The notes beneath the pieces are model-generated. The model did no database searches. It was not told where the DNA came from and saw only the letters and a program-made list of their open reading frames with translations. This document shows positions 13,512 through 31,615 of a DNA stretch of 32,000 bases, piece by piece (the stretch's first letter is position 1; each line of letters starts with the position of its first letter). This stretch comes from Candidatus Scalindua sp. (GTDB taxonomy: Bacteria > Planctomycetota > Brocadiia > Brocadiales > Scalinduaceae). The stretch lies in NCBI GenBank assembly GCA_031316235.1, contig JALDRA010000001.1:600001-632000 (forward strand), given 5' to 3'. A program made the translations under genes and the position numbers.

Positions 13512-13533
13512 TATTCAGCTCCCTAAGCTGGCA

Positions 13534-13578: not shown

Positions 13579-13590
13579 GGTCAGGTTGTA

Positions 13591-13698: not shown

Positions 13699-13802
13699 TA
13701 TAATGAAAACCTGCAGTTTTCAAACTTCCCTTTATTATATAAAAATAACAGCTGTCCATTTTTCTTTACCACACAAAGGTGTGAGAAAACGGCCTGTAAT
13801 AA

Positions 13803-13926: not shown

Positions 13927-13934
13927 TCAAATTT

Positions 13935-14771
13935 CTACCAGCAACTGTAACCACCATCTATTATTAAATTGGCTCCCGTCATATAGGATGAGGCATCTGA
14001 AGCCAGAAAAAGCACCGCGCCACTGTATTCGCCTTCTCCCGCCATACGCCCGAGCGGTACTTTAGAACAATAGTTCTTCAAAAACGTCTCATCCTGATTA
14101 TTAAAAACCCCTCCCAATGTGAGAGTATTCACCCGGACCCCTGCCCCGGCCCAGTAGGTAGCAAGATACCGTGTAAGATTCAAGACACCTGACTTGGTAA
14201 CTGAGTACGAAACTGGTTTAAAGAAAGGCTCTTCCTTATACTCATATAACCTCTGATCCGGAGAAAGATTACCGTAGATGGAAGAAATATTGATTATACT
14301 GCCCTTACCGCTTCTGGCAATAGCTCCGCCTATCACCTGGCAGGACAAAAACATTCCCGTTAAGTTTACGTCTATTATTGCCTGCCATGACGACTCAGGG
14401 TATGTCTCAAAGGGTCCTGTTTCCTGCTCCGATGCATTTGGAGGAGCATCAACAGCAGCATTATTAACCAAAATAGCAGGAGGACCGAACCGGGATAACA
14501 CTTCTCCCAAACCGTCTTGAAGAGATTTTCTACTGGTTATGTCTGCCTCAACTAATAATAGATTCTCAGAATCAATTTTCCCCAGTTTCGATTTGGGATT
14601 GTCGAGCCTTATATCAAAAGCTGCGACACGTGCATTGGCGGCAAGCAGCGTTTGAACATATTCACCTCCAAGTTGTCCTGCTGCACCAGTCACGACCGCA
14701 ACCCTTCCGGATAAACTGAAAAGTCCTTCGCTCTTGGAAATCAATCCTGATCTATTACGGGTTACCTTCAT
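13935..14771 (-). CDS. Short-chain dehydrogenase/reductase (SDR)
   Basis: 278 aa. VVTGAAGQLGGEY (TGxxxGxG), NNAAV, and the catalytic YSVTK (YxxxK). Confidence 0.85.
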   Translation of the reverse strand: MKVTRNRSGLISKSEGLFSLSGRVAVVTGAAGQLGGEYVQTLLAANARVAAFDIRLDNPKSKLGKIDSENLLLVEADITSRKSLQDGLGEVLSRFGPPAILVNNAAVDAPPNASEQETGPFETYPESSWQAIIDVNLTGMFLSCQVIGGAIARSGKGSIINISSIYGNLSPDQRLYEYKEEPFFKPVSYSVTKSGVLNLTRYLATYWAGAGVRVNTLTLGGVFNNQDETFLKNYCSKVPLGRMAGEGEYSGAVLFLASDASSYMTGANLIIDGGYSCW

Positions 14772-14842
14772 GAATCAAACAAGATTTTCAAATTAGAAAA
14801 AAACGTTCTCTCTGCCTGAAATATATCTTTCTGTGGTTCTCA

Positions 14843-15898
14843 TCACTCCAGGAAATCGAGCGAGATCGGCTCCTCTTCATTTAAATCGACTTTCAGCTTC
14901 CTGCCTATGATTTTATCAGCCAGATATGGTGGAACTCCGTTAGCGGGTGTCTTAAAGATAATATCATTCCGGGTAAGGATAGTACCTGCGGAGAGCGGTT
15001 CAGAAGTGTAGATGCCTTTCCCCATCTTATTTCTTGCCTCTTTTTCAAAGTCATAGACAACACGCTCTTCATCACCAAGAGAGATATCCACACGATTCAA
15101 ATCCCTCACCTGTTTTCGCAACCCTTCCGGCTCCAGGGAGAACTTATGGTCAGTTCCTTTCCATGAACGATTCAACGTGAAATGCTTTTCTACAACCCTG
15201 GCACCAAGCATATAGGCAATTACGGGAGCTAAAATACCATTGTCATGGCTGGAATACCCTATAATGGCATCGGGAAATTCCCTTTTTAATACCTTTACAA
15301 TCCTCAAATTCAAGTTCCGGTATTCAACAGGGTATTCTGCAATGCAATGCAGAATACAGATTTTATCATTATGGGGTCGAATCGTTTCATAGGCTATCCG
15401 TATCTCATCGAATGTCGCAGCTCCGGTTGAAACAAACATTGGTTTTCCTAATGTGGCAACATACTTCAACAGGGGAGTATTGGTTAGATCTCCGGAAGCA
15501 ATCTTATAGCTGGTTATGCCTAATTTCTCAAGGAAGTCAACACTCTTAAAATCAAAGGCTGCAGCCATGAATTCAACTCCATTCTCCTCAGCACAATTCA
15601 TAATTTCAACATACTCGTCCCAACCAAATTCGAGATATTCCCGATGTTCCCCATACGTAGCCCCGTAGCTGTTCTCGTTATCATACGGTTTATTGTAGAA
15701 TTCCTTCGTGTAGAGACTCTTATTATCCCGCTTTTGAAATTTCACAGCATTGACACCGCAATTTGCGGCAACCTTAATCATTTCAAGAGCAGTTTCCAGT
15801 TTGCCTTGATGATTGTGCCCAATCTCGGCGATAATAAAACACGGCCCATTATCAGAAATTACGCTTTTACCAAAATGAACGGTTTTCATAAATAACAT
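14843..15898 (-). CDS. NeuB-family nonulosonic/sialic acid synthase (PEP-condensing) with C-terminal SAF domain
   Basis: 351 aa. CFIIAEIGHNHQGKLETALEMIKVAANCGVNAVKFQKR is the NeuB/PseI/LegI signature. C-terminal ...LSAGTILTRNDIIFKTPANG is SAF-like. Substrate class cannot be told by eye. Confidence 0.85.
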   Translation of the reverse strand: MLFMKTVHFGKSVISDNGPCFIIAEIGHNHQGKLETALEMIKVAANCGVNAVKFQKRDNKSLYTKEFYNKPYDNENSYGATYGEHREYLEFGWDEYVEIMNCAEENGVEFMAAAFDFKSVDFLEKLGITSYKIASGDLTNTPLLKYVATLGKPMFVSTGAATFDEIRIAYETIRPHNDKICILHCIAEYPVEYRNLNLRIVKVLKREFPDAIIGYSSHDNGILAPVIAYMLGARVVEKHFTLNRSWKGTDHKFSLEPEGLRKQVRDLNRVDISLGDEERVVYDFEKEARNKMGKGIYTSEPLSAGTILTRNDIIFKTPANGVPPYLADKIIGRKLKVDLNEEEPISLDFLE

Positions 15899-16249
15899 TC
15901 TCCCCGTGAAAAACCTGCAAGGCTCTTTCTCCGGCGGTTAGGGCTCAGAAAAAATAACGCTGACAGCGTGAGAAAAACTAAAACGTATAATAGCTAAAGA
16001 CAGATCCGTCCCCTTTCAGTTACATACAATCTTCACCATAACATTTATGAGATCAGCAACTTACAGCAATCTGCAAAAAAAAGATACTCCGCCTGAATCA
16101 TTTCTGAATTGATTTCTTTAGAACTCTACCTTAAACCTGATATATATTGCATTGTAAGACTTATTGAGCACAATATATATGATTGTGCAGGAAAAAGTCA
16201 ATAATCATTTTACTATCACCTGATAAGCTTGCTAAAAAACACTTAATTA

Positions 16250-17869
16250 TCAATAAATGACCTTATATAAGAATAAAACACTTTGATTCGAAGTATCGCT
16301 ATCGTGTGCGGTATAGACCAGCTCTGTCTGCCCTTTCATATCAGATTGCTTCAATTCTGCTGCCAGGACTTCCTGCTCTTTCCTCGTCAACACTATGTAA
16401 TCGGCATTTTCTTTTCTCGCCAGAGAAAGTGCAGTGTAAATGTCTGCCATCTGTACCGCTCTCCCTCCGGCATAATAGGCGTTTCTTGCAGATGTGCTAC
16501 AGACTACTGGTACGGCCTTCTCTGAATTTTCTCTTATCCATTTACCAACTTGCAAAATACCTACCTTATCAAACCTCTGGGGTTTCAGTGTCTTTGGCAG
16601 TAAAACCCCCAGGGCAAGAACTACTATAACGAGCAGTACCCTTCTTTCACTTTTCCCCATCCTCTTCAGCAGCCACACACCCAATTTGCCCGTCTGAATC
16701 CTTTCATATAACCATGTACCCACTGCAGTAACTCCTATGCCAACCCAGAAGAGAACGGGGATAATTATAGGCATTACGTGTCTCCTGCTGGGATAGTTGA
16801 CACCTTCACCGGAACATACCGCGTGTGTCAAGTTTAACCTTAATAGAATGAAGAGATAGAACAAAACGATTGACAATACATAGTACCCAAAAAACCCCTT
16901 CTTCCCGATCTTGCACCAACTGGCCATACCGACAAGAAAGAGTGCAAACAAAAATGGATGGAACGTACTGATATATTTTTCCATGGTATATAAAGCACCA
17001 CCAATATAAGCCTTCACACTTGCCCCTTTATCTGACGGTTGGTTAACATGAACTGGCCCGGAATCTGTCTGCGGCCCCCCTGTTTCTTCAGCAGCTCTTT
17101 CGCCATCCTGGCGATCAATCAACTTCTCGATACCCGCTATCTTCGATACACTCTTTTTCTTGGTAAGATGCCAGGAACCTGTTTCACTCTTTATATATAC
17201 CAGATAAGGAATCGAGAACACTGCAAATGAAGCAACAAGAATCAGGATTTCAACCAGTTTCTGTTTCCAGACAACCTTTATCCTGAAGCCCCCCTTGAGA
17301 AGACACCAACCACTCACAATGCACATAATCCCAATCCCTTCCGGTCGGGCAAGATAGGCAAATGCACTGCAGATGCCCGTAAGAGCATACAGCAAAATCC
17401 TCCCATCTTTTATTGCAAAAAAACCGGATCCAAGCGCTGCAAGAAAGAAAAAGAAATAGGTTGACTCAGAGATGATATCAGCTGAAAACCTTACCGCGTA
17501 TGGATGAAAGGCCAGAATAAGGGAAGAAACAAACGATATCTTCTGGTTAAATACACCCCTGCCGATCAGATAAAAGATTAAGACCGTTACTGTACTCAAA
17601 AAAACAGATATGATAGTACCCGAAAGCTCCATGTAAGGAATGATCTTGTACACACCAGCCATCATCATTGAGTACAAGGGGTGATAGTCGTGTCTTAAAC
17701 CGGCTTGAAAATCTCCACGAGCAAAAAAGTGTGCATTCTCGATAAACGCAACACTGTCATTCTGTATTACATAGGTAACAGAGCTCAGATATATTCTCAC
17801 CATCAGAGAACAACACAGGATTATCCAGGCGTATCTATCATGTAAAAATCCAATTTTGTTTTTTTCCAT
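16250..17869 (-). CDS. GT-C fold membrane glycosyltransferase (GT39/GT83, PMT/ArnT-like)
   Basis: 539 aa with about 11 hydrophobic helices. An acidic motif (QNDSVAFIENAHFF) follows helix 1. There is a Pro/Gly/acidic internal loop and a ~110-aa soluble C-terminal domain, the typical PMT_2/ArnT-like architecture. Confidence 0.55.
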   Translation of the reverse strand: MEKNKIGFLHDRYAWIILCCSLMVRIYLSSVTYVIQNDSVAFIENAHFFARGDFQAGLRHDYHPLYSMMMAGVYKIIPYMELSGTIISVFLSTVTVLIFYLIGRGVFNQKISFVSSLILAFHPYAVRFSADIISESTYFFFFLAALGSGFFAIKDGRILLYALTGICSAFAYLARPEGIGIMCIVSGWCLLKGGFRIKVVWKQKLVEILILVASFAVFSIPYLVYIKSETGSWHLTKKKSVSKIAGIEKLIDRQDGERAAEETGGPQTDSGPVHVNQPSDKGASVKAYIGGALYTMEKYISTFHPFLFALFLVGMASWCKIGKKGFFGYYVLSIVLFYLFILLRLNLTHAVCSGEGVNYPSRRHVMPIIIPVLFWVGIGVTAVGTWLYERIQTGKLGVWLLKRMGKSERRVLLVIVVLALGVLLPKTLKPQRFDKVGILQVGKWIRENSEKAVPVVCSTSARNAYYAGGRAVQMADIYTALSLARKENADYIVLTRKEQEVLAAELKQSDMKGQTELVYTAHDSDTSNQSVLFLYKVIY

Positions 17870-18349: not shown

Positions 18350-18751
18350 ATGTCAATACTGATCGAAGAACTGAAGCATGAACACTCAGACATTCTGGCG
18401 ACACTGAACGAAGTAAAAAAGCTGGGTATTCTTTCAAAAGAGGGACAAACCAAACTCCTTGCCGCAAAAGCTGTATTACTCGAACATCTGCAAAATGAAG
18501 ATGACAGGCTGTATCCGATTCTCAAAGCGAATGCAGAACAGAATAAGGCACTTGAAAACACCTTAGACCTTTTCGCCATGGACATGAAGAATGTATCAAA
18601 TATTGTAAAAAAATTCTTCAAAAAATTTTCCATTGGTGTTGTTTACGATGAGATCCAGAAAGATTTTGAATTACTGTTCTCGGCTCTCGTTGAAAGGATA
18701 AAGAACGAAGAAGATCTCCTCTATGATGAACTTGAAAGGCTGCAGCAATAA
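18350..18751 (+). CDS. Hemerythrin-like (HHE cation-binding) domain protein
   Basis: 133 aa and helical. Recurring H/E ligand-type spacing: LKHEHSDIL, LLEHLQNEDDRLYP, RIKNEEDLLY. Good SD. Confidence 0.55.
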   Translation: MSILIEELKHEHSDILATLNEVKKLGILSKEGQTKLLAAKAVLLEHLQNEDDRLYPILKANAEQNKALENTLDLFAMDMKNVSNIVKKFFKKFSIGVVYDEIQKDFELLFSALVERIKNEEDLLYDELERLQQ

Positions 18752-18843: not shown

Positions 18844-20193
18844 TTATATATCCAGAATCCTCTTTGCAATCTCAAAATAGATGAAGATGCCGGTTACGTC
18901 AAGGATCGTAGTAATAAGGGGTGCAGAAACCATCGCAGGGTCGATTCTCAAATAACGGAAGATGAGTGGGGCTGTAGCGCCACCTATGTTTCCTACAAGG
19001 ATCACGGCCGCTACCGATATTCCTACCGTAATCCCCAACTTTATGTCTCTGAAAAATACTACGGCAACCATAAATGCCGTTGCTCCCAGGGCAAGACCCA
19101 AAAGAAAGCCGGCACAGGTTTCCCGCCATAGTACCTTCAACCACTGGCTGAGCATTAATTCCCCGGTTGCCATAGCCCGGATCACCAGGGTAGATGATTG
19201 CGAACCAATATTACCTCCCGCATCCGTCAGCATAGGGATAAAATAGGCCAGGGCAATTATGGAGCTGAGTGTCACTGTGTATTTCTGGAGTATCTTTCCA
19301 GAGATAGTAGACGCCAGTATCAAGAAAAACAGCCACACAACTCTTCCGGAAACATGCTTCAAGACCCCTGAACGGAAGTATTTCTCTTCCGGCAACTGCA
19401 TAGCAGCCATTTTATGAAAATCTTCCGTAGCCTCATCCTCAACTATGTCAAGAATATCATCAACCGTAATTATGCCAACCAGACGGTTTTCACTGTCAAC
19501 CACAGGCAAAGAAATGTAATCATATTTTTGAATTACCTTGGCTACCGCTTCCTGATCATCTGTTGTCTTTACCTTATGAACGTTTTCCTGCATTATCTGA
19601 CTTATTTTCTGATCAGGTTTTGCCAGGATAATGTCCCTAAGCGACACCACTCCGCACAGTACTCTTTTTTCATTAATTGCATAGCACGTATAGATGGTCT
19701 CTCTGTCAGGCCCTGTCTCACGTATACGTTCAAGTGCTTCGGAGACGAGCATTTCCGTCTTAAGATCCACATACTCCGTGGTCATTACCTTTCCTGCCGA
19801 TTCCGGTGGGTAATTTAAGAGTACGTTTGCCTCTTCTCTCTCTTCCCGAGGCAATAGTTTAAGGAGCTTGTTTACTACAGATGCCGGCAGTTCGTCCAGG
19901 AGGTGCGTCCTGTCATCGGGACTCATCTCCAGCAGGATCTCTTTTACCTTTTGTTCGGTAAACTGCCTGAGAAGCTCTTCTTCCTCTTCAGGATCGAGAA
20001 GGGAAAAGACTTCGGCAAACTTTTCCTTGTCAAGCATCCGAAATGCAATTGTTCTCTCGGTGGGTTCTAACTCCCTGATTACATCGACAACATCAGCAGG
20101 ATGTAGCCCTCTCAGGATAAGGCGAAGGCCTTTGAGATTCTTCGCATCTATCAGTTCCTTTAATTCAGGTGTAAATATCTTGTACCACTTCAT
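18844..20193 (-). CDS. mgtE: Magnesium transporter MgtE
   Basis: 449 aa. MgtE_N region (LHPADVVDVIRELEP), a tandem CBS pair (VMTTEYVDL..., ...LPVVDSENRLVGIITVDDILDIVEDEATED) and a 5-helix C-terminal MgtE membrane domain (IPMLTDAGGNIGSQSS). Confidence 0.9.
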   Translation of the reverse strand: MKWYKIFTPELKELIDAKNLKGLRLILRGLHPADVVDVIRELEPTERTIAFRMLDKEKFAEVFSLLDPEEEEELLRQFTEQKVKEILLEMSPDDRTHLLDELPASVVNKLLKLLPREEREEANVLLNYPPESAGKVMTTEYVDLKTEMLVSEALERIRETGPDRETIYTCYAINEKRVLCGVVSLRDIILAKPDQKISQIMQENVHKVKTTDDQEAVAKVIQKYDYISLPVVDSENRLVGIITVDDILDIVEDEATEDFHKMAAMQLPEEKYFRSGVLKHVSGRVVWLFFLILASTISGKILQKYTVTLSSIIALAYFIPMLTDAGGNIGSQSSTLVIRAMATGELMLSQWLKVLWRETCAGFLLGLALGATAFMVAVVFFRDIKLGITVGISVAAVILVGNIGGATAPLIFRYLRIDPAMVSAPLITTILDVTGIFIYFEIAKRILDI

Positions 20194-20324
20194 AATGTTT
20201 ATTACTACGTAAAAAAAACCAACTGGTTAAAATTTTGAGCGCTACAAATTATCTGATATCATGAAAAAATCAACAAAGCCGGGATATTTCAATGAGACGG
20301 GGGCAGACCCGAAACAACACCGCA

Positions 20325-21518
20325 TTATCTTGCTAAATTTTTCAAGCTCGAACCGGAGCGGTAAAACGGGTGGTAATGTAAGCCACAGCATCTTGAACAA
20401 ATTGGCAAAGAGTTTTCATTGATAAATTTCCTGAATTTTCTGGATTTACTGTTATTCCAGATTTCCGAGAATCGTTCATTCTTTATATTTCCTAATACAT
20501 AATCAGGGTTGTCATTACAAAAGACCGCATCTCCATTAGGATATATCATGAGGTGTGCCCAGGGGGCAATACAGCGTTTAATCTTTTCCCCTGGTTTGGA
20601 TCCATTATGAAAAATATCATGCTGCGGAGAATAATAGCTTGTAATATCGGAAATTTTTAACGCAGGAAAAAACGCAAGTTTAAATTTGAGCTCCTTTTTA
20701 AGCATGGAAGAAATACTCTGCTGCAACGCGACAGGGTCTATTGAAGTCTCATCCCGCACCCACCCTTTCCATGACGTCGCATCGCACTGAAAGATTTCCT
20801 TCATGGTATTCTCATAATTTATCCCGGTCCTCGTATTATTAAAATAGGGATGTTTGACAAGCAGCATTTCAAAACCCAGTTGTTCCGTAATAACGGGCAT
20901 CTCCTGCAAATGCTGATGTGAAGATTCGTTAATAGTAAATACCTGACATAACAAAGGTTTTTGTTTACCTCTCCTTTTCTTCTCATCAATGATCTTCCGT
21001 ACTCCGGATGCAACCTTCTGAAAACCATCAAGAGTTCCCCTGCTCTTATTATGAATCTCTTCAGGCCCATCGATTGAGATGTACAGGACATCAACTCCAA
21101 GTTCGACTACCTCATCTGCATGATTATCGAGAAACGTCCCGTTTGTAACAATCCAGCATATCAGGTTTTTCTGTTTGATATACCGTATTAATTCCATGAT
21201 GTCCTTATAAAAGAAAGGTTCTCCACCTGTCAGAAAAATGGTTGGGGAAAATTTTGAGACATCATCAATGAAACCTTTCAAGACATCGATGTTCATCGTT
21301 TCTCTCAGAGCGCTGCTATCTTTTTGATAATAGTTTCCGAGCTCTCCCCACTGCCCGCAATTCTTGCACCGGAAATTACACAGATACGTGGGCATCATAT
21401 GTATGAGGTACGGTGAAAAGCTATATCCACTCTTTAAACGACCATCAATCTGAAAAGAGAGTATTCTTGTAACCCACTTTAACATTCTTATATCAGAAAA
21501 TGGGTTTTCCCGCGTCAT
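20325..21518 (-). CDS. Radical SAM protein with partial SPASM/twitch C-terminal domain
   Basis: 397 aa. CNFRCKNC is the CX3CX2C motif, followed by LTGGEPF. C-terminal CIAPW...NGDAVFC (Gx4C) ...LGNI...F.EIWN...LPICSRCC is an auxiliary-cluster region with fewer Cys than a full SPASM domain. Confidence 0.8.
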   Translation of the reverse strand: MTRENPFSDIRMLKWVTRILSFQIDGRLKSGYSFSPYLIHMMPTYLCNFRCKNCGQWGELGNYYQKDSSALRETMNIDVLKGFIDDVSKFSPTIFLTGGEPFFYKDIMELIRYIKQKNLICWIVTNGTFLDNHADEVVELGVDVLYISIDGPEEIHNKSRGTLDGFQKVASGVRKIIDEKKRRGKQKPLLCQVFTINESSHQHLQEMPVITEQLGFEMLLVKHPYFNNTRTGINYENTMKEIFQCDATSWKGWVRDETSIDPVALQQSISSMLKKELKFKLAFFPALKISDITSYYSPQHDIFHNGSKPGEKIKRCIAPWAHLMIYPNGDAVFCNDNPDYVLGNIKNERFSEIWNNSKSRKFRKFINENSLPICSRCCGLHYHPFYRSGSSLKNLAR

Positions 21519-21550
21519 CTTTATTATGTTTTTAAGGGTATCAATCGTCT

Positions 21551-22756
21551 TTATTCTTTCGTTCTTTCTACACCCAGAAACTCTGCCATCCTTAAAAATG
21601 TCCTGCCAAGCATTGAGCGTTTCATCACTATCGCCTTATAATTACAGACCTCATCGCAGCAAAAACAACCAATACACGCATCTTCATCCACTATCACCTT
21701 GCCATTCGGAGCTGACATTGCTTTTGCGGGACAATTTCTTATGCATTCATAACATCTCGTACAGTTTGGCTCATAAATGGTAGATATGGAGCTGCAGCTA
21801 TTGTCAAACATCTTTGCAAGAAGGAAATTGGGGATATATTTGGACGCAAAATCCTGAGCAGAGCTTGAAGGTTTCTTAAAATCTGGAACTGAAACCGCAG
21901 CTATTTTTTCTCCCACCACGTTAATGTTGTTCAAATCTGCAGTACCCAGTCCTCTTTCATAAGCATATTTAATTATGGGGACCGTCATTGGATTAAAACC
22001 TATTATCGAACTGGCAACAGCATCGAGAGCAACACAATCATAACTTGCAATGATTACACCCACCTTCCGGGGTTCTCCCGCATTCGGGCCGTTTCCTTCC
22101 ATCCCAATTATTCCATCCATTACGGTAATATGCGGTTGGACCATCTCAAAGACATCAACCAGAGCCTTTGCCATTAATTTGGCTTTTGGAGCAAGCAGAT
22201 GTACATTTTTTTTCCCATTTGCAGGAATTGCTCCAAACATATTCTTTATGGCACCTGTATACCTCGTTAAACCATGAGTCTTTAATTTGGGAACAGAGAC
22301 AATAACATCGACAGTTTTCACAGTCTTTGCGATCTTAAAGGATTTTACAATTGCGCTTTTCTCATTGATAATGTCTAAGGTCTCATCCTTATCAAAATTT
22401 ACTATTTTGGCACCAGTCTCTTCTGATATCTTATCTATCTGAGTCACCCTGAAGGCCTGATACGTAGAACCGGTTCTCAGACTTCCACAAGAATCGCCAA
22501 TATAAACCTCACAGCCATAATCTTTCTGAAAAATATCAACGAGTGCCCTGATGACTGAAGGATGCGTGTTAACAGCTCTTTCAGGTCCCAATGCCGCAGA
22601 AAGGAGATTTACCTTCAACAAGACCTTCATACCAGGTTTTACAAGAGTCTCCACATTGCCGAGTAGATCGAGACATCTTTTTGCAGCTATACCGACCTCT
22701 GCAAGGTCATACTCCTCACAGCGTGAAATTGAAACAGTTGACATATTATCACCCAC
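21551..22756 (-). CDS. DUF362 domain protein with C-terminal 2x[4Fe-4S] ferredoxin-type domain
   Basis: 401 aa. The N-terminal ~300 aa resemble DUF362 (VLLKVNL..., HP.V..A, VSVPKLKTHGLTRYTGAIKNMFG). C-terminal CTRCYECIRNCP...CIGCFCCDEVC gives two CxxCxxCxxxC(P) motifs. The GTG start at 22756 lies 10 nt after aggagg; an alternative ATG is at 22744. Confidence 0.75.
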   Translation of the reverse strand: MGDNMSTVSISRCEEYDLAEVGIAAKRCLDLLGNVETLVKPGMKVLLKVNLLSAALGPERAVNTHPSVIRALVDIFQKDYGCEVYIGDSCGSLRTGSTYQAFRVTQIDKISEETGAKIVNFDKDETLDIINEKSAIVKSFKIAKTVKTVDVIVSVPKLKTHGLTRYTGAIKNMFGAIPANGKKNVHLLAPKAKLMAKALVDVFEMVQPHITVMDGIIGMEGNGPNAGEPRKVGVIIASYDCVALDAVASSIIGFNPMTVPIIKYAYERGLGTADLNNINVVGEKIAAVSVPDFKKPSSSAQDFASKYIPNFLLAKMFDNSCSSISTIYEPNCTRCYECIRNCPAKAMSAPNGKVIVDEDACIGCFCCDEVCNYKAIVMKRSMLGRTFLRMAEFLGVERTKE

Positions 22757-22784
22757 TGAGTCTGTGCCTCCTGCACAGCTCTTT

Positions 22785-22821
22785 AAAATAGCAGCGACAA
22801 CACACTTGTTGCTGCTATTTT
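22785..22821 (-). terminator. Intrinsic-terminator-like hairpin between the B12-rSAM and DUF362 genes
   Basis: aaaatagcagcgacaa (22785-22800), loop cacac, ttgttgctgctatttt (22806-22821): 16-nt arms with one non-Watson-Crick position. On the minus strand this is an A-tract, a GC-containing stem, then TTTT. Confidence 0.4.
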
Positions 22822-22906
22822 GAATATGTGCTTCAGCACAAAAAAATGTACCCCATTGATTTATTTACATTTGCAAACGGAAAGTCTATACAATAAAATA
22901 ATCGTA

Positions 22907-24370
22907 TTAGAAAAATTTATTCATCTCTTCCGCCCTGTTCATATCTTCTCTGTATAGTTCTCTCTGTGTTAACTTTTTCTGAAAGATACAATTTTTAAGT
23001 TTTCTGTAAGGCCTCATACAATAGGTTCTAAAGTAGTATGCGGCAGGATAATTCTTGATAAATGCCCTGGTGGTACATATATAATCAGCATATTTTTTAT
23101 TATATTTCCACCTGAGGAACTGCAACTCATCGGGAGTCAGATAGTTTGTCTTAATATTTGCCCAAAAACAGTTATACCTGCTGTAATCATATTTATTGGT
23201 TACGAGTCCTTTTTCAATCATCTCTTCCCGTAATGGCGTCTTGGGATAAGGCGTCAGTATTTGATCTGCAAAAAAATCGATATCTAATCCTACAAAGAAC
23301 TCGTAGTTCTCGGCAATATTCTCTTCCTTATCGTTTGGATGTCCTATGATCATGCCACCGACAATCATTATTCCCTGATCGTGTAATCTGTTGACGGCAA
23401 TCTTTGTCTTTTCAATAATGTTCCCCTTTTGCAGGTTCTTCAAATTTTCCTTTGAAACGTTTTCAATACCAAGAAAGACTATCCTGAATCCGGCCCTTGC
23501 CATCTTTTCTGCCAGCGTTTCTGAAGAAGCTATACCTGCACTGCTCGCCTGGATGATATACCGTATGTCGTTGTGGCCGGAAGCAACAATGGCATCACAG
23601 ATATCTTCAAATCTTTTTACATTAAGAGAAAAATTATCGTCTGCGATGATGATAAAGTTCGCACCGTATTTTTTAGCATCACCAATATCTTTCATAACCC
23701 TGTCAATACTATATTCCCGAAAACTTTTGCCATACATTTTGTCTATACTGCAGAAGTTGCATGGCATGGTACACCCCCGGGATGTCTCTACGATATCTAA
23801 CGTAAAACCATAGTATCGATAACCTTTATAGACTCTCTTAGCCCTTGCCGGCAATTTAATATCATCTAAATTCTCAAGTGGCCTGGGGCTATTATGAACA
23901 AATTTTCCATTTATTTTATAAGAAATACCTGAAACACCCCTTATATCACGTTTTTGTTCATGCGCCTCCAGAAGCTCGCTGAAGCTCAGGTCCCCTTCAC
24001 CCCTTACAAGGAAGTCAAATTGTTCAGCACAATCACTACCAGCAATTTCGTCATACATTAACGTTGCATGATAACCCCCCAGCGCAGTCTTTATCTCTCT
24101 GTTTTCATCCTTTATGATCTGCGCAATTTTCCGGGACGTTTCAAATTGGAAGCTCATTGCACTAAGACCAACGACTGACGGTGTATATTTTCGTAAGAGT
24201 TCCAAGACACTCTGCTCAATTTTATGTCTTCTCAATACCAGGTCTGCGACAAAAACGTTATGGTTTTTGATGTTGCCGGCAATTGATGATATGGCAAGAT
24301 TTGGAGATTTCCACCTCTTTCCATTGAAGTGAGGAGCGGTATCTGGCATGGATAAAAGAAGAACATTCAC
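22907..24370 (-). CDS. B12-binding-domain radical SAM protein (class B)
   Basis: 487 aa. N-terminal MNVLLLSMPD...VGLSAMS (cobalamin-binding Rossmann-like domain), then ETSRGCTMPCNFCS (CX3CX2C). The GTG start forms a GTGA overlap with the nitroreductase stop (24370-24367). Confidence 0.85.
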   Translation of the reverse strand: MNVLLLSMPDTAPHFNGKRWKSPNLAISSIAGNIKNHNVFVADLVLRRHKIEQSVLELLRKYTPSVVGLSAMSFQFETSRKIAQIIKDENREIKTALGGYHATLMYDEIAGSDCAEQFDFLVRGEGDLSFSELLEAHEQKRDIRGVSGISYKINGKFVHNSPRPLENLDDIKLPARAKRVYKGYRYYGFTLDIVETSRGCTMPCNFCSIDKMYGKSFREYSIDRVMKDIGDAKKYGANFIIIADDNFSLNVKRFEDICDAIVASGHNDIRYIIQASSAGIASSETLAEKMARAGFRIVFLGIENVSKENLKNLQKGNIIEKTKIAVNRLHDQGIMIVGGMIIGHPNDKEENIAENYEFFVGLDIDFFADQILTPYPKTPLREEMIEKGLVTNKYDYSRYNCFWANIKTNYLTPDELQFLRWKYNKKYADYICTTRAFIKNYPAAYYFRTYCMRPYRKLKNCIFQKKLTQRELYREDMNRAEEMNKFF

Positions 24371-24873
24371 TTAATTTCCCTAACCATTCCAGCTAATGGT
24401 TTTCTATACGTTGGTTCCGGAATGTTCACCGGATAACCCAAAGGCGTTAAGATTAAGGGTTCAACGTTATCAGGGAGTTCGAGAACTTCTTTTACAACCT
24501 TTGATTTAAAAGCTGCTATCCAGCACGTGCCAAGCCCCTCGTTAAATGCTGCAAGAATTAAATGATCCATTGCTATCGCAACATCAACATCAACATATGG
24601 TTTACCATCCCCCCTTTTCCAGGCTTCATCAGGCATCGCACATGCACATATTATAATGGGAGCAGTATAAAACCATTTCTGTGAATATGCGTCCTTTAAT
24701 CTCCGTTTTGTCTCATCTTCCTTTACTACAACAAAAGATACAGGCTGCCTGTTTGCAGCTGATGGTGAAAGTATTGCAGCATTCAGTATCCGATTCAGTT
24801 TGTCTTCTTCGATCAGATCCGGTTTATACGATCTTATACTCCTTCTCTTTCGAATAACATCATAAAATTCCAC
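24367..24873 (-). CDS. Nitroreductase-family flavoprotein (small, ~168 aa)
   Basis: MEFYDVIRKRRSIRSYK...ILNAAILSPSAANRQP is the nitroreductase-family N-terminal signature. The GTG start is preceded by ggaggggga. Confidence 0.8.
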   Translation of the reverse strand: MEFYDVIRKRRSIRSYKPDLIEEDKLNRILNAAILSPSAANRQPVSFVVVKEDETKRRLKDAYSQKWFYTAPIIICACAMPDEAWKRGDGKPYVDVDVAIAMDHLILAAFNEGLGTCWIAAFKSKVVKEVLELPDNVEPLILTPLGYPVNIPEPTYRKPLAGMVREIK

Positions 24874-25155
24874 CTGGTCCCCCTCCCCGACATACTTCTT
24901 AGAAAATTTACGTTACACTGTACTCAAACTTGTTTTTTGTACAAAATCTGCTGTGCTGAACGGACGTTTATCGCAAACCATTAAAAAAGCAGCCGTGCAT
25001 TCTTTAGGTTTACACCACACATTTTTCTCAAGAGATATACTACCGTTTCCATGAAAAACCATTCTGTCTCAACAACAGCAGGTTTTTTCACCTAAATACC
25101 CGAAGGATATGACCGTAGGATAAAGAAGTTTTGATTTTAACAGATCTTAATTTCT

Positions 25156-25184
25156 TTGACAAGAAAATTGTGTGTTGATAAAAT
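25156..25184 (+). promoter_or_regulatory. Sigma70-like promoter candidate for the ispH-fusion operon
   Basis: TTGACA (25156-25161), N17, TAAAAT (25179-25184), about 65 nt upstream of the ATG at 25249. Confidence 0.4.
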
Positions 25185-25248
25185 TACTCGGAATATATAA
25201 TATTAATGCGTTTTAAATCATGGATCAGGAATTAAGATTGGGGAAATT

Positions 25249-26994
25249 ATGAGCGTTATCGTAGCAAAAACAGCTGGCTTCTGTATGGGTGTACGAAAAG
25301 CACTGGATAAGGTTCTGGACGCCTCTGATAAAAAGAAAAATGATGGTGGAACTGTTTTTACGGAGGGGCCACTCATACACAACCCTCAGGTACTTGAGAT
25401 GCTGGAAAACAAAGGAATAAAGACCCTGAAAGGAGAAACTGATCTTTCTAAAAGCACCGTAGTCATAAGGGCACATGGAATAACACCTCAGAAGAGACAG
25501 GAATTAGCACAATCAGGTGCGAACATCTGTGATGCTACATGTCCCAGAGTCATGCGGGTACAAACAATTATCAGGTTGCATGCAAAGGACGGTTATTCCA
25601 CCATTATCGTTGGAGATGAGGGACATGCCGAAGTAGTGGGGTTGCTTGGATATGCAAATGGGAATGGATATGTAATCTCCTCGGCTGAAGAAGTCGCAGG
25701 TTTACCCGATATGGAAAAAGTCTGCATCGTAGCCCAGACAACACAAGACATGCAAACCTATGCATCAACTGTAGCAAGGCTGAAAGGAAGATATAAGAAT
25801 CACAAAGTATTTGAAACAATCTGCAGTTCAACATCAAAAAGGCAAGAAGAGATAATTACGCTGAGCAATTCCGTTGATGCCATGATTGTTGTAGGGGGTC
25901 GGGGAAGTGCCAACACAAACCGGTTGGTACAGATATCTGCGAAAGAAGGAACTCCCACTTTCTTGATTGAAACGGAACAAGAGCTTGATAGAGACAAACT
26001 TTCAGAGTATGATGTGATTGGTGTGACTGCAGGAGCTTCAACACCTAACTGGTTGATACAGCAGGTGGTAGAAAAAATTCAAACATCCCAGGCCGAAAAG
26101 ACCGGTACCATACGCAAACTTACGCAAAAAGCAGGGACAATCTTCATTGGAAGTTTCATGTATCTCGGCCTGGGCGCTGCAAGTCTCAGTTATACCGGAT
26201 CTGTTCTTCTCGGTATCAATTCTAAATTTAGTTTTTGTACCATTGCAAGCCTGTTCCTCTTTTCCATGTATGTTCTCAACCATTTTGCATACAAAGAGGC
26301 TGTAGCATTAAACGTACCCTCTCGATCAAAATTATATAACCGGTATCAAATCCTTTTCGTGGTTCTCGGTGTTATGGCTGCACTTATCTCTTTTGTATTG
26401 GGATTCATGCTGAGTATTCAGGTATTTTTCTGTGTTTTTTTTGCAGCCTTATTTGGAATAGCTTACAAGATATCAGTAATTCCGAAGAATTTTCCTAAAA
26501 TTGTCAGGTATCGCAGCCTGGAACAGATCCCGGGTTCCAAAGAGATATTTATCAGCATGGCCTGGGCAGTGAGTACCGGATTGATCCCATTTTTAGGCTC
26601 ACCTGTCAGCTATTCCCCAGCCCTTCCAGTTGTATTAGTTTTTGCGTTTAGTATAGCCTTCATACGGACAACACTTCTTGGTGTAGAAGATGTGCAGGGT
26701 GACAAGATTGTCGGAAAGGAAACAATACCCATCGCAATGGGAAAAAAAAGTACCAAGCAACTCTTGATAGCAATTTCGATAGTGCTGGCAATACTCTTGA
26801 TAGTAAGCCCGATTATTGGTTTATCTTCGACACTTTCATTTTATCTTCTCCCCTGTGTTCTATACGCCTGTGGATATCTATACCTCTATCACAAACGCCT
26901 CATACCAAGTGGATTAGCCTGTGAGTTTATTACCGATTTCAACTTCATCCTGGCAGGAATAATGGTTGTAATATGGCGCTTGTGTGAATTATAA
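25249..26994 (+). CDS. ispH: Fusion protein: IspH/LytB (HMBPP reductase) domain plus C-terminal UbiA-superfamily 9-helix membrane domain
   Basis: Residues 1-~285 carry all three IspH cluster cysteines in context (TAGFCMGVRKA, CDATCPRV, ETICSSTSKRQ) plus HAEV, VVGGRGSANTNRL and GVTAGASTP. Residues ~300-581 are hydrophobic, with a UbiA second motif LLGVEDVQGDKIVGKETIPIAMG. The first motif position reads LNHFAYKEAVALNVPSR (no Asp). Confidence 0.8.
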   Translation: MSVIVAKTAGFCMGVRKALDKVLDASDKKKNDGGTVFTEGPLIHNPQVLEMLENKGIKTLKGETDLSKSTVVIRAHGITPQKRQELAQSGANICDATCPRVMRVQTIIRLHAKDGYSTIIVGDEGHAEVVGLLGYANGNGYVISSAEEVAGLPDMEKVCIVAQTTQDMQTYASTVARLKGRYKNHKVFETICSSTSKRQEEIITLSNSVDAMIVVGGRGSANTNRLVQISAKEGTPTFLIETEQELDRDKLSEYDVIGVTAGASTPNWLIQQVVEKIQTSQAEKTGTIRKLTQKAGTIFIGSFMYLGLGAASLSYTGSVLLGINSKFSFCTIASLFLFSMYVLNHFAYKEAVALNVPSRSKLYNRYQILFVVLGVMAALISFVLGFMLSIQVFFCVFFAALFGIAYKISVIPKNFPKIVRYRSLEQIPGSKEIFISMAWAVSTGLIPFLGSPVSYSPALPVVLVFAFSIAFIRTTLLGVEDVQGDKIVGKETIPIAMGKKSTKQLLIAISIVLAILLIVSPIIGLSSTLSFYLLPCVLYACGYLYLYHKRLIPSGLACEFITDFNFILAGIMVVIWRLCEL

Positions 26995-27026: not shown

Positions 27027-27716
27027 ATGAAACATAAAAATATACTTACCGAAAGCAACTTTAAAAGAAATATCAGGAGACGGCTGATTGCCGGCCTTCT
27101 CGTCATCCTTCCAATATATGTCACTTTTTTTGTCATTAAATTTTTGCTGGGATTAATAGGAGGAATCCTCTCACCTTTAGTTCGGAAGGTGTTCCTGGTT
27201 TTTGGTTTTGCTTTGCGAAATAGCTCAGCCGATGAATTTGTTGTCACATCAGTTGCATTTGTACTTGTCTTTGTATTGATCTATTTTATTGGTGTCTTTG
27301 CAACCAATTTCTTTGGCAAGCTTCTAATAGGATATTTTGAAATGCTATTGGACAATATGCCTATTATTAAAAACATCTATAAATCCTGCAAGCAGATGAT
27401 TGGTCTTATCGGCCTGCCAAGCAGAAAGGCTTTTAAACGTGTAGTGATTGTTGATTACCCCCGTGTGGGAATGAAGGTTGTTGCATTTGTCACAGGCAGT
27501 TTGAAAAACAATGAAGGAACAGAACTTACCAGCATCTTCATCCCCACGACACCAAACCCTACATCAGGGTTTCTCATATATCTGCAGGAAGAGGAGATCG
27601 TAGAAACAAATATGACAATTGAGGAGGGTATGAAATTGATTGTCTCGGGTGGAATACTTGTCCCTGATGAGATCGAATTCCATACCAAACAAACTGAGGG
27701 CAAGGCAGATGCATAA
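27027..27716 (+). CDS. DUF502 family membrane protein
   Basis: 229 aa. Two N-terminal helices, then ...VVIVDYPRVGMKVVAFVTG... and IFIPTTPNPTSGFLIYL, the DUF502 hallmark PTTPNPTSG. Starts 33 nt after the ispH-fusion stop. Confidence 0.7.
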   Translation: MKHKNILTESNFKRNIRRRLIAGLLVILPIYVTFFVIKFLLGLIGGILSPLVRKVFLVFGFALRNSSADEFVVTSVAFVLVFVLIYFIGVFATNFFGKLLIGYFEMLLDNMPIIKNIYKSCKQMIGLIGLPSRKAFKRVVIVDYPRVGMKVVAFVTGSLKNNEGTELTSIFIPTTPNPTSGFLIYLQEEEIVETNMTIEEGMKLIVSGGILVPDEIEFHTKQTEGKADA

Positions 27717-29494: not shown

Positions 29495-31615
29495 TTGATA
29501 AAAATGGAAAAGGTGGAATGTAAATTAATTGACAGAAATTCTGTGTCCGGTCAGCTGGAGCGGGTATTTCGGCCTATTGAAGGCGAAATTGCCATACGCA
29601 GCCAAGACAGGGTACAGGTGATTTCCTTCGATCAAATTTCCTGCGTTTTGTTTACCAAAACATCAAATCAACAGAATAATTTTCACGTGCGCGGCATAAA
29701 ACCAGAAGAGATTACAACAAGGTCCGGTGAAGTTTATCGGGTACGGGTAGTACAGCAGGACATTATGGAAGATCTTCATCAAGGTTTTTACGGTATACCG
29801 ACCAACCAGGAAAATGGACCAAGCTACATTTTTTTTCTTAAAACTGGTATTATGCACCGAGGCAGGGAGCGCCTTGACAAGAACCAGATGTACACAACTA
29901 AGGAGAATGGTCAAAACACCTCAGGAGAGTATCAGCAACAGAAAATCGGAGAAATTTTGACTGATTACAATCTCGCCACCAAGAAGCAAATTGATGCAGC
30001 ACTCAAAGCACAACGTCTTGGTTCAAACAAGTACCTGGGAGAGATCCTCATTGCAAATAAAATTATCACGGAAAAAGAGCTCTTAATGGCATTGGCATTT
30101 AAATTCCAATTACGCTCTGTGGATCTTCGTGACATATCTCCTAATCTGGAAACACTTGATTTAGTACCGTATGAAACGGCAAGAAAGTTCCATATCTTTC
30201 CATTTGCATCTGATACAAAAAAAATTACTATTGCAACCTCTCAGCCTACTGACATTAATGTCATAGACACCTTGCGTTTCAGTACCAACCGATGGGTGGA
30301 AATGGTGTTAGCAACACATAAACAGATAGAAACACATATAATTAAATATTATGAAGATGAGTCAGAAAAAAACGAAATAAATATAGACGAAGTGATATCT
30401 GGCATAGAGCTGGAAGAACAAGCCCAAGAGATAACAATAAAAGACGAAGCGGAAGCTGCACCAGTCATACGCTTGGCAAACAAGATACTTCTCAATGCTC
30501 TCAAGGAGGGCGCGAGTGACATCCATATGTTACCGCAAGAAAAAGGATTGAAGGTTTCATATCGAGTGAATGGCCTGCTTCAAGAATACCTTAAGTTGGA
30601 CAAACGTATCAGCAAGAGTTTGGTTGCGAGGTTTAAAATTGTTGCTCTCATGGATATCACAGAACGCCGCCTGCCGCAAGATGGCCGTTTTAAAATCGTT
30701 TTGAACAACCGCCCTGTAGAATTCCGCGTTTCCTGCATGCCAGGTCAATATGGAGAAAACCTCGTATTGCGTATTTTAAATAGAAGTAATCATACTACCG
30801 GGTTAAATCAATTGGGACTGGATAGCAAGGATGTAGAAACAATACGTCATATAGCCCGCAGTACCCATGGCATGATGCTTGTCACCGGGCCAACCGGTAG
30901 CGGCAAATCATCAACTCTGGCCGCCGTATTGCAGGATCTGGTCGATGAACCCAAACACATGTTATCATTGGAAGACCCTATTGAGATTGAAGTCCCGGGA
31001 ATTAATCAAATACAAATTCACGAAAAAATAGGTTTCACTTTTGCAACAGCCCTTCGCAATGTTCTACGACACGACCCTGATATTATTATGGTTGGAGAAA
31101 TACGTGATCCAGAAACTGCCAGGATATCTGTCCAAGCAGCGCTGACCGGTCATGTACTCATTTCAACCCTTCATACAAATAGTGCTGCCGCGGCATTTTC
31201 CCGTTTGTCAGACATGGGTGTGGAACCGTACCTGGTATCGGCAACTGTTAAAGGTATCATGGCCCAGCAACTGTTACCTCGGCTATGTGCAGAGTGCAGA
31301 TTAACCAAAAAACCTGATGAAAAGATACTGGCATTCATTGCCAAACATGGGATCAATACCAAAAATCTGATCGATCATGCTTCCAGAGGCTGTGATCATT
31401 GTCGTGATTCCGGTATATCAGGCAGGATATTGGTGTATGAATTTTTAGCGGTGAATCATGAATTACAGGCCATGGTATCAAAAGAGGCCACATTAGATGC
31501 GATACATGCAACCGCTTGTAAACTGGGCATGCGCACTATTGTGCAGATGGCAGTAGATGCTTCTCAGAAGGGACTTGTTTCACTCAACCGTATATTGCCT
31601 CTGTTCATCGAGTAG
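29495..31615 (+). CDS. GspE/PilB-family secretion or type IV pilus assembly ATPase with ~150-aa unrecognised N-terminal extension
   Basis: 706 aa. Tandem T2SSE_N/MshEN-like helices (KIGEILTDYNLATKKQIDAALKAQ; YLGEILIANKIITEKELLMALAFKF). Walker A GPTGSGKSST, Walker B DPDIIMVGEIRD, His box GHVLISTLHTN. Tetracysteine CAEC...CDHC. TTG start in the track; ATG (MEKVECK) is 3 codons later. Confidence 0.85.
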   Translation: MIKMEKVECKLIDRNSVSGQLERVFRPIEGEIAIRSQDRVQVISFDQISCVLFTKTSNQQNNFHVRGIKPEEITTRSGEVYRVRVVQQDIMEDLHQGFYGIPTNQENGPSYIFFLKTGIMHRGRERLDKNQMYTTKENGQNTSGEYQQQKIGEILTDYNLATKKQIDAALKAQRLGSNKYLGEILIANKIITEKELLMALAFKFQLRSVDLRDISPNLETLDLVPYETARKFHIFPFASDTKKITIATSQPTDINVIDTLRFSTNRWVEMVLATHKQIETHIIKYYEDESEKNEINIDEVISGIELEEQAQEITIKDEAEAAPVIRLANKILLNALKEGASDIHMLPQEKGLKVSYRVNGLLQEYLKLDKRISKSLVARFKIVALMDITERRLPQDGRFKIVLNNRPVEFRVSCMPGQYGENLVLRILNRSNHTTGLNQLGLDSKDVETIRHIARSTHGMMLVTGPTGSGKSSTLAAVLQDLVDEPKHMLSLEDPIEIEVPGINQIQIHEKIGFTFATALRNVLRHDPDIIMVGEIRDPETARISVQAALTGHVLISTLHTNSAAAAFSRLSDMGVEPYLVSATVKGIMAQQLLPRLCAECRLTKKPDEKILAFIAKHGINTKNLIDHASRGCDHCRDSGISGRILVYEFLAVNHELQAMVSKEATLDAIHATACKLGMRTIVQMAVDASQKGLVSLNRILPLFIE

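Follow-up and report, generated by a model that had tools for sequence, protein, structure and literature searches.

A radical SAM operon of Candidatus Scalindua, best read as a mosaic built on an ancestral anammox core

Among characterised families, the one closest by profile score to the cobalamin-dependent radical S-adenosylmethionine (radical SAM, rSAM) enzyme described here is the ring-forming BchE, for whose activity a small ferredoxin proved a better support than chemical reductants did (PMC13598231). Another B12-dependent radical SAM enzyme (B12-rSAM) of anammox genomes, the Kuste2803-type protein of the ladderane clusters (TIGR04072, "lipid biosynthesis B12-binding/radical SAM protein"), has been proposed, unproven, to act on lipids (PMC2649909, PMC10139942). 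DUF362 proteins are joined with LarA/DUF2088 in Pfam clan CL0471 (PMC11770544), and no characterised DUF362 protein was found in the literature searched. Relatives of these protein types also occur in metagenomic polysaccharide and lipid clusters with Wzz, Wzy, flippase and glycosyltransferase genes. We analysed a 32,000-nt stretch of Candidatus Scalindua sp. DNA (hereafter the window), in which a minus-strand cassette at 20325-24873 encodes a nitroreductase, a B12-rSAM, a DUF362-ferredoxin protein and a radical SAM enzyme of the twitch type. The best-supported interpretation is that this locus is a mosaic operon and not one invented four-gene module. Its ancestral core is near-universal in anammox bacteria (Brocadiales) and consists of a BchE-like B12-rSAM (paralogue A), usually its sister paralogue B, the DUF362-ferredoxin protein and the Mg2+ transporter MgtE.

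In order of transcription the cassette comprises genes for a protein of the small FMN nitroreductase family (NTR; 168 aa, 24367-24873, PF00881), which is the first operon gene in this genome; a class B, cobalamin-dependent radical SAM enzyme, paralogue A (487 aa, 22907-24370, PF02310 and PF04055); a DUF362 protein of LarA-like fold with a C-terminal 2x[4Fe-4S] ferredoxin domain (DUF362-Fd; 401 aa, 21551-22756, PF04015); and a radical SAM enzyme with a truncated, twitch-like SPASM domain (twitch rSAM; 397 aa, 20325-21518, PF04055 and PF13186). The mgtE gene follows on the same strand (18844-20193; TIGR00400, 478 bits against a cutoff of 233). One genome per species was scanned, and the resulting 64 loci were mapped by tblastn with all window proteins. 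At Scalinduaceae loci DUF362-Fd, MgtE and twitch rSAM were each present in 6 of 6 cases, and NTR and the divergent IspH-UbiA-like fusion with DUF502 in 7 of 7. Among the other Brocadiales (Brocadia, Kuenenia, Loosdrechtia and basal groundwater and sediment families), DUF362-Fd came after the B12-rSAM in 29 of 33 assessable loci and MgtE came next in 27 of 31; twitch rSAM (0/31), NTR (0/29) and IspH-UbiA (0/27) were not detected at their loci. Annotated Brocadia and Kuenenia contigs agree with this picture. Adjacency of B12-rSAM and DUF362-Fd is held across the order-level clade at 58-66% identity, DUF362-Fd being missing beside A in L023, L031 and L034, and the gap between DUF362-Fd and mgtE is ~3-7 nt in eight loci. 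From these counts, this spacing and the tree of A and B described below we conclude that the stable unit is [B]-A-DUF362Fd-MgtE. NTR and twitch rSAM are Scalinduaceae additions, the latter inserted exactly at the DUF362-mgtE junction. The sequence-only reading had taken the four genes for a self-contained module, with a lack of synteny in related genomes as one of its refuting tests. This view holds only in part: the four genes and the IspH fusion do co-occur at Scalinduaceae loci, but at no other Brocadiales locus are twitch rSAM, NTR or IspH-UbiA found, and MgtE, the B12-rSAM paralogue and a HAD-IB hydrolase described below also belong to the system. No other gene adjoins the DUF362-Fd and twitch rSAM genes as constantly as mgtE does, and it is probably the last gene of the operon.

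Beyond mgtE the surroundings vary. In Brocadiaceae (Brocadia, Kuenenia and Loosdrechtia; L001, L003 and ~20 others) the next five genes form a block with no Pfam hit on record and encode proteins of ~82, 266 (TPR-like by eye), ~101, ~200 and 275 aa (coiled-coil in appearance). It is not present at Scalinduaceae and basal Brocadiales loci, and membership of these five unannotated genes in the operon was rejected since they are restricted to Brocadiaceae. In the window, a 133-aa hemerythrin-domain protein is encoded on the opposite strand (18350-18751, plus), between mgtE and a glycan cluster; a hemerythrin gene also lies near the locus in Brocadia (L002), L006 and L140.

Orthologues of A are 59-90% identical across Brocadiales genome loci. 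The best 120 matches to it come from Brocadiales wherever they are named, and named orthologues at >=53% identity are all from Brocadiales. Paralogue B is 52-58% identical to A, and the two share 117 invariant columns. B stands in tandem, immediately upstream of A, in basal lineages (L033, L036-L040, L042, L066), a few kb upstream in Brocadiaceae (L001, L012, L019, L028) and elsewhere in the genome in Scalinduaceae (L041, L043, L045, L047, L048, L052, L063). In a neighbour-joining tree with non-syntenic Planctomycetota homologues as the outgroup, anammox A and B formed one clade (185/200 bootstraps) made up of sister groups A (193/200) and B (197/200). The Scalinduaceae metagenome-assembled genome (MAG) Maj_2_bin.64 carries a third copy (L041), which groups with A. 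Genes adjoining B in Scalindua encode a GlpX-like/TPR fusion, an HtrA protease, a cysteine desulfurase and a prismane-family protein.

The Scalinduaceae version of the locus has NTR in front, apparently translationally coupled to A, and the twitch rSAM inserted downstream; a HAD-IB gene stands upstream in some genomes and seems to have been lost here. Seven species-level Scalinduaceae genomes show this order again, with proteins that are 71-93% identical, so the arrangement is not due to chance. The open reading frames (ORFs) lie where they had first been read, four co-directional genes on the minus strand, and Pfam bore out each of the named domains. Also confirmed were the overlap of the NTR stop with the B12-rSAM start (GTGA at 24370-24367, read directly in the sequence), the spacing of 32 nt between DUF362-Fd and twitch rSAM, and the divergent intergenic region of 375 bp (24874-25248). 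The coincidence of NTR end and B12-rSAM start is kept in 7/7 Scalinduaceae genome loci by tblastn, and the spacing of 32 nt shrinks to ~5 nt in L006/L007. No terminator-like site was detected on the minus strand between the cassette genes or between twitch rSAM and mgtE. Comparison with orthologues suggests that DUF362-Fd starts 5 codons downstream of the annotated start and is 396 aa long; twitch rSAM orthologues have 406 aa, and the NCBI annotation of the window copy has 386 aa. A Candidatus Scalindua sp. MAG (MDR4503649-53) matches the B12-rSAM at 100% identity under generic database names.

The divergent region contains back-to-back sigma70-like promoter matches, at 25162-25134 on the minus strand and 25156-25184 on the plus strand, with scores of 11/12 and 10/12. 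The predicted minus-strand promoter implies a leader of ~260 nt ahead of the NTR gene. Rfam gave no family at gathering thresholds in the whole window and none even at E<=1 for 20150-25300, and the idea that the leader or the intergenic DNA holds a riboswitch or some other RNA was rejected. Two minus-strand ORFs considered as precursor-peptide candidates (24913-25062, 49 aa; 24981-25091, 36 aa) had no counterpart in 7 sister loci (tblastn E>0.1), and both were discarded. No conserved precursor gene of a ribosomally synthesised and post-translationally modified peptide (RiPP) was thus found in the cluster, in line with the initial impression that the flanks hold none. A role in anti-phage defence was also rejected, the matches to pVip and PDC-M51A reflecting the generic radical SAM core only.

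In the more divergent Scalinduaceae a gene for a HAD-IB hydrolase (TIGR01490, 123.9 bits against a cutoff of 98.3) lies 37 nt upstream of NTR, for example at 6176-6850 of L008. Carriers include L008, L009, L050, L082, L083, L086, L090 and L091. Nine loci have an intact copy, in S. rubra (L010) the gene carries a frameshift, and in L030 it is reduced to a 45-aa remnant; no trace of it was detectable in the intergenic DNA of the window. Seeded with the UbiA-like domain, a metagenome scan returned 59 loci (L081-L139). In 14 Scalinduaceae-like contigs (L082, L085, L086, L089, L090, L093, L095-L100, L102 and L138) the B12-rSAM is deleted and DUF362-Fd follows NTR after 180-688 nt. Within this NTR-DUF362 interval a scar aligns to B12-rSAM residues 1 to 17-46, beginning exactly at the NTR stop; one example is 'VNALPFSTTGTVPHISGKRWKSPGVSISSIARDSKNQNI*', aligned to 'MNVLLLSMPDTAPHFNGKRWKSPNLAISSIAGNIKNHNV'. 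The NTR and DUF362-Fd ORFs are intact in these contigs, genes for enolase and DivIC come next, and twitch rSAM and MgtE are absent there. A twitch rSAM orthologue of 68% identity was found at a separate locus 19 nt upstream of mgtE (L140); the pair occurs in L140/L141, and the twitch rSAM gene stands alone in L070/L072. The 440-aa gene before it in L140 encodes an unrelated TPR protein and was rejected as a cassette member. Loss of the B12-rSAM from 14 contigs and the position of the twitch rSAM-mgtE pair elsewhere show that the cassette genes are separable and that one of them can be lost. Genome comparisons in the literature describe the loss of methylmalonyl-CoA mutase, another enzyme that depends on cobamide, from Scalindua of oxygen-deficient zones (PMC11104535), and given that loss the deletion of the B12-rSAM would fit an economy of B12.

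We used Pfam and NCBIfam profiles to place the individual proteins. The B12-rSAM scored 60.0 bits with PF02310 (cutoff 32.1) and 70.3 bits with PF04055 (cutoff 29.5), as expected for a class B enzyme, and its CxxxCxxC motif, CTMPCNFC at residue 200, is kept in all copies of A and B. The best NCBIfam match was BchE (TIGR02026), at 178.6 bits against a cutoff of 481. The likeness to BchE extends over the B12-binding N-terminus and the CxxxCxxC core in a nearly full-length alignment (residues 23-439), and BchE gave the best score of any characterised family; the score is nevertheless far below cutoff, and a search of 1.84 billion representative proteins retrieved ~60 full-length, uncharacterised clusters at 40-46% identity, far closer to the B12-rSAM than BchE is. 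Because these clusters lie outside the clade, the B12-rSAM family is not an anammox invention. No bacteriochlorophyll (bch) genes were detected in the window or in the ~45 anammox loci examined. Scores were also below cutoff for the ladderane-cluster family TIGR04072 (73.5 bits, cutoff 360), HpnJ (119.3, cutoff 577.6), HpnR (106.5, cutoff 650) and HpnH (60.0, cutoff 225); PhpK, MoaA, AhbC/D, NirJ and the tungsten-cofactor maturase were rejected as identities, all being far under their NCBIfam cutoffs. Searches of solved structures by sequence with the cassette proteins found distant relatives only, and the match to 9CCB, which is MgmA, is uninformative as to the substrate of the B12-rSAM. The expectation that both radical SAM proteins fall outside characterised subfamilies therefore held for every NCBIfam score, and no published account of the locus was found in the literature on DUF362 function, Scalindua radical SAM genes or biosynthesis of the bacteriohopanetetrol (BHT) stereoisomer BHT-x, so that the combination, as first supposed, does not correspond to a pathway described in the literature searched.

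DUF362-Fd matched PF04015 with 197.8 bits against a cutoff of 24, and matches down to 57% identity come from Brocadiales wherever named. Two CxxCxxCxxxC motifs (C331/334/337/341 and C360/363/366/370) are invariant in 43 homologues. An AlphaFold (AF2) model of the protein (pLDDT 85.3, pTM 0.82) was compared by Foldseek, and the top 18 PDB hits were LarA, malate racemase and LarA-like nickel-pincer enzymes (E=4e-7 to 5e-5, probability 1.0, ~250-290 aligned columns), which places the DUF362 domain in the LarA fold; the C-terminus of the model matches 2x[4Fe-4S] modules. No alignment of DUF362 to LarA was obtained at the sequence level. Fold and Pfam clan are shared with LarA, but identity is 10-16% and the fused 2x[4Fe-4S] ferredoxin domain is something LarA lacks. 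The His/Lys-rich motifs N-T-H-P, G-D-S, P-K-x-K-T-H and K-K-x-x-H are invariant in DUF362-Fd and, together with the LarA fold, suggest an active site and hence an enzyme wired to Fe-S clusters. By its model, DUF362-Fd probably goes beyond a ferredoxin and works as an enzyme in its own right. The description of the cassette as two radical catalysts with two electron-transfer partners is a fair one, except that DUF362-Fd appears to be more than an electron carrier. This is the first structural hint for a DUF362 fused to ferredoxin, a LarA-like domain wired to Fe-S clusters. Proteins of the same type recur beside B12-rSAMs in other bacteria.

A full SPASM domain has a seven-Cys motif, CX9-15GX4C ... 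CX2CX5CX3C ... C, and binds two auxiliary clusters. Twitch rSAM scored 62.7 bits with Radical_SAM (PF04055) and 54.6 bits with SPASM (PF13186), and its auxiliary cysteines are C315-x12-G-x4-C333 and C373-x2-C376-C377, the protein ending ~20 residues later. Only five of the cysteines are conserved and the CX2CX5CX3C...C part is missing, so that the label "reduced SPASM/twitch" given to it from the sequence is accurate. The best NCBIfam match is the tungsten-cofactor maturase, with 116 bits against a cutoff of 380. The family is small, with 70 hits, and named members at >=66% identity are all from Scalindua. In the ranking of folds against the AF2 model (pLDDT 83.6) BlsE came best (E=1e-13, TM 0.61/0.73), followed by SkfB, DesII, SuiB, MoaA, CteB, anSME and viperins, and BtrN aligns by sequence to the auxiliary domain. 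The ranking mixes enzymes that modify sugars or nucleosides with others that modify peptides. Like the twitch enzymes BlsE, DesII and BtrN, the protein is predicted to have capacity for a single auxiliary cluster; it differs from them in being 12-19% identical and in a C-terminal CSRCCGL that is unique to its small family. NTR is a generic small nitroreductase (PF00881, 104.4 bits) whose nearest solved relatives are uncharacterised nitroreductases, e.g. 3g14 (E=9e-34); with BluB it scored 71.3 bits in two fragments, against a cutoff of 150.

The architecture and the evolutionary history given above are observed, and what follows on chemistry and substrate draws on family resemblance and on distant genomic contexts. 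We propose radical methylation or ring/C-C bond formation, followed by a redox or epimerisation step, on a non-peptide precursor of the cell envelope, a tentative reading to which we give a probability of about 0.4. The B12-rSAM would functionalise a C-H bond of a non-peptide substrate by a radical mechanism, either methylating it or forming a C-C bond or ring by an oxidation of the BchE type; the most plausible substrate would be a lipid, a glycolipid or a sugar-linked precursor of the cell envelope, and a peptide is disfavoured by the lack of a conserved precursor ORF. The ferredoxin domain of DUF362-Fd may deliver low-potential electrons to the radical SAM cluster or to cobalamin, much as a ferredoxin supports BchE, and the LarA-like domain may act on a carbon with a hydroxyl group, in a redox reaction or an epimerisation. 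The twitch rSAM of Scalinduaceae could subject this molecule, or a related one, to another radical step, of the BlsE/DesII/BtrN type, with NTR feeding NAD(P)H-derived electrons through FMN and the HAD enzyme removing phosphate from an intermediate. MgtE would be co-expressed for metal supply.

Hints at the substrate come from the gene contexts of relatives. B12-rSAM relatives at 40-48% identity adjoin lpxB (L051), a MurJ-like flippase gene (L053) and genes for a type III polyketide synthase (PKS) and another B12-rSAM (L062). The first of these, at 8670-11530 of a Planctomycetota MAG, is the nearest homologue outside the syntenic anammox clade (48%) and overlaps the lpxB stop by 4 nt, which suggests that the family is tied to lipid A in some planctomycetes. 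The L078 relative keeps company with genes for FabA/ApeI-like, ammonia-lyase, AMP-ligase, LpxL-like acyltransferase, glycosyltransferase family 2 (GT2) and MMPL proteins and three further radical SAM genes. Relatives of DUF362-Fd at 43-48% lie with a sugar epimerase and GT2 (L075) or with DUF2079 and two ketosynthases (L077), and another one lies in an exopolysaccharide (EPS) cluster with a B12-rSAM, a UDP-glycosyltransferase, an acetyltransferase and Bac_transf (L076); that B12-rSAM is 24% identical to A and was rejected as its orthologue. Twitch rSAM relatives at 53-55% adjoin glycosyltransferases and giant CarboxypepD_reg surface proteins, and one at 34% is found inside a Wzz/Wzy/flippase/glycosyltransferase/PMT_2 cluster flanked by B12-rSAMs. 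A further hint is that the fold closest to twitch rSAM is that of BlsE, a sugar-nucleoside enzyme, with DesII in third place. The anammox locus resembles these EPS (L076) and aryl-polyene-like (L078) clusters in its protein types; the proteins, however, are 24-48% identical, and the anammox core locus has no glycosyltransferase or fatty-acid synthesis (FAS) gene. The S-layer O-glycan of Kuenenia is unusually methylated, its methyls being read as O-methyl, and contains an unidentified 174-Da sugar (PMC5088730). Each of these hints is weak; together they suggest that the chemistry concerns a lipid, glycolipid or glycan of the cell envelope.

In the window itself a nonulosonic-acid/polysaccharide cluster lies just past mgtE and the hemerythrin gene (1412-17869, minus strand). 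It encodes NeuB, an SDR protein, an aldehyde dehydrogenase, a transketolase-like protein, a Wzx-type flippase, FkbM and other methyltransferases, two cytidylyltransferases, a PMT_2 glycosyltransferase and a 574-aa ORF (5327-7051) without a Pfam hit.

Several observations weigh against an envelope substrate common to the whole cassette. This glycan cluster adjoins the locus only in the window and in L006. The contextual hints come from relatives at 34-48% identity only and are heterogeneous, pointing to lipid for the B12-rSAM and to glycan for DUF362-Fd and twitch rSAM, and four of the contexts (L055, L056, L061, L079) were uninformative. In the fold ranking of twitch rSAM the RiPP maturases SkfB and SuiB, and also anSME, score nearly equal to BlsE. 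Finally, deletion of the B12-rSAM and relocation of the twitch rSAM-MgtE pair show that the genes can function apart, and a substrate shared by all four is therefore not established.

This last point leads to an alternative in which the genes are neighbours by rearrangement and have no common substrate, NTR with B12-rSAM, DUF362-Fd alone and twitch rSAM with MgtE serving different pathways. It accounts for the differing phyletic histories of the genes, for the 14 contigs that keep NTR and DUF362-Fd intact after loss of the B12-rSAM, for the separate or solitary twitch rSAM genes of L140/L141 and L070/L072, and for the loci in which A lacks DUF362-Fd. It fits poorly with the operon-like spacing (the 4-nt overlap and the gap of 32 nt, or ~5 nt in L006/L007), with a gene order kept in 7 species-level genomes, with the placement of twitch rSAM exactly in an otherwise tight DUF362-mgtE junction and with the order-wide adjacency of B12-rSAM and DUF362-Fd. 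We regard such independent modules as unlikely, though deserving of serious weight.

An isoprenoid or other lipid substrate had been suggested from the divergent neighbour, and in a corresponding proposal a hopanoid or another prenyl lipid, formed with the help of that protein, would be what the radical SAM enzymes methylate, cyclise or epimerise. The neighbour is a 581-aa IspH-UbiA-like fusion (25249-26994, plus strand; Pfam LYTB 304.7 bits, UbiA 38.3 bits), followed by a DUF502 gene (27027-27716, plus). Its IspH half belongs to TIGR00216 (280.0 bits over residues 3-279, cutoff 187.85). The UbiA-like half is very divergent: the Pfam score of 38.3 bits stands just above a cutoff of 34.2, and neither sequence nor profile searches matched it to solved UbiA structures. 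Motif 1 of UbiA (N-D-x-x-D-x-x-x-D; N67-D68-Y-A-D71-R-K-F-D75 in E. coli) corresponds to N344-H-F-A-Y-K-E-A-V in the fusion, in the context V-L-N-H-F-A-Y-K-E-A-V against V-V-N67, so that all three Asp residues are replaced; the pairwise alignment is weak, and homology rests on the Pfam score. The N-H-F..K-E residues are invariant in 7 orthologues of the fusion, and this motif was the search pattern that recovered the 59 metagenome loci. The second motif, D-x-x-x-D, is retained as D-V-Q-G-D, aligned to D191-x-x-x-D195 (hhalign E=0.037) and invariant in orthologues. Since D68, D71 and D75 are lacking, the UbiA-like half is unlikely to be a canonical prenyltransferase. The unit of IspH, UbiA-like domain and DUF502 is kept in two identity tiers of anammox-like metagenome contigs, 66-77% and 55-66%, and no cassette gene was detected beside it in the lower-tier contigs (~29 loci). 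The fusion is thus the IspH of anammox bacteria in general, joined to a membrane domain that is non-canonical, and a membrane-anchored IspH with such a prenyltransferase-like domain seems to be undescribed. IspH is a housekeeping enzyme of the methylerythritol phosphate (MEP) pathway, so adjacency to it carries little information, and its place beside the cassette in one family says little about the substrate of the cassette. Further along the plus strand, and unrelated to the cassette, a T2SS/T4P-type ATPase with an N-terminal MshEN (c-di-GMP-binding) domain is encoded at 29495-31615.

In a variant of the isoprenoid proposal the twitch rSAM of Scalinduaceae makes the Scalindua-specific BHT stereoisomer. 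A BHT stereoisomer is known from anammox bacteria (Rush et al. 2014, as cited in PMC11104535). The partial profile similarity to HpnJ, HpnR and HpnH (119, 106 and 60 bits), the presence of the fusion in 7/7 Scalinduaceae genome loci and a twitch rSAM family that is essentially restricted to Scalinduaceae and persists where the B12-rSAM is lost speak for a tailoring of prenyl lipids or hopanoids. The Hpn scores, however, lie far under their cutoffs, no hopanoid genes (shc, hpn) were detected in the window, and the fusion is unlinked to the cassette in 27 of 27 non-Scalindua loci as well as in the ~29 lower-tier contigs; with the loss of the motif 1 Asp residues and the housekeeping role of IspH, the isoprenoid link becomes weak, and we consider the proposal improbable. 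As an independent idea, epimerisation of bacteriohopanetetrol to the Scalindua-specific stereoisomer by the Scalinduaceae-restricted twitch rSAM may be entertained as speculation.

Ring or C-C bond formation by A and B in ladderanes or other fatty-acid-derived anammox lipids can be set beside our reading. Only the anammox clade shows the duplication into A and B, no characterised family is nearer than BchE, which forms a ring, and genes for FabA, ketosynthases or a PKS lie beside some of the homologues. The non-methylating B12-rSAMs all make or rearrange rings (PMC13598231), and ladderane biosynthesis is unsolved (PMC13459092, PMC10139942), both of which speak for such a role. None of ~45 anammox loci, however, links A or B to FAS, acyl carrier protein (amxACP) or PDH/phytoene-dehydrogenase genes. 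The B12-rSAM of the ladderane clusters, which are extended FAS clusters (amxACP/FabZ/FabF/PDH), although likewise found in anammox genomes, belongs to another family and another locus than A; A is deleted at its locus in the 14 Scalinduaceae-like contigs, and the wider B12-rSAM family is no anammox invention. A fatty-acid-derived lipid is thus very improbable as the substrate. It is just as much a long shot that A and B, with the LarA-fold/ferredoxin protein, form an undescribed ring- or C-C-forming pathway, as an alternative or an added route to ladderanes or another anammox lipid outside the FAS clusters, which to our knowledge have been the sole candidates for the ladderane route since 2009; the loss of A in some Scalinduaceae-like lineages is compatible with a lipid pathway of A and B because B may substitute.

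Least probable of all, and barely credible, is that the radical SAM enzymes modify a ribosomal peptide or a protein encoded elsewhere, for the fold similarity of twitch rSAM to SkfB, SuiB, CteB and anSME and the hidden Markov model similarity of the B12-rSAM to ApyD, RiPP C-methyltransferases and the MCR glutamine methyltransferase MgmA (9CCB) are generic to the radical SAM core and far under family cutoffs, no conserved small ORF was found in or near the cluster in 7 loci, no domain of the RiPP recognition element (RRE) type was among the Pfam hits, and the operon has no peptidase or exporter gene.

We favour the envelope reading, in which the locus is most likely an uncharacterised radical SAM tailoring operon, ordinary in kind and clade-defining in anammox bacteria. 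Anammox bacteria account for a large share of marine nitrogen loss and have unique lipids, the ladderanes and a diagnostic hopanoid stereoisomer. We know of no biosynthetic enzymes assigned to the anammox ladderanes, the hopanoid stereoisomer or the methylated S-layer glycan. The deletion scars are natural knock-outs of the core catalyst in uncultured Scalinduaceae-like lineages and can be used for correlation with lipid or glycan phenotypes. If the substrate is not an envelope lipid or glycan, the locus is one more uncharacterised radical SAM operon. If it is, the locus would be a marker of lifestyle differences among anammox lineages. The analysis defines a compact, conserved and previously unexamined set, made up of the B12-rSAMs A and B, the LarA-like Fe-S protein and MgtE, and separates it from the additions made in Scalinduaceae.

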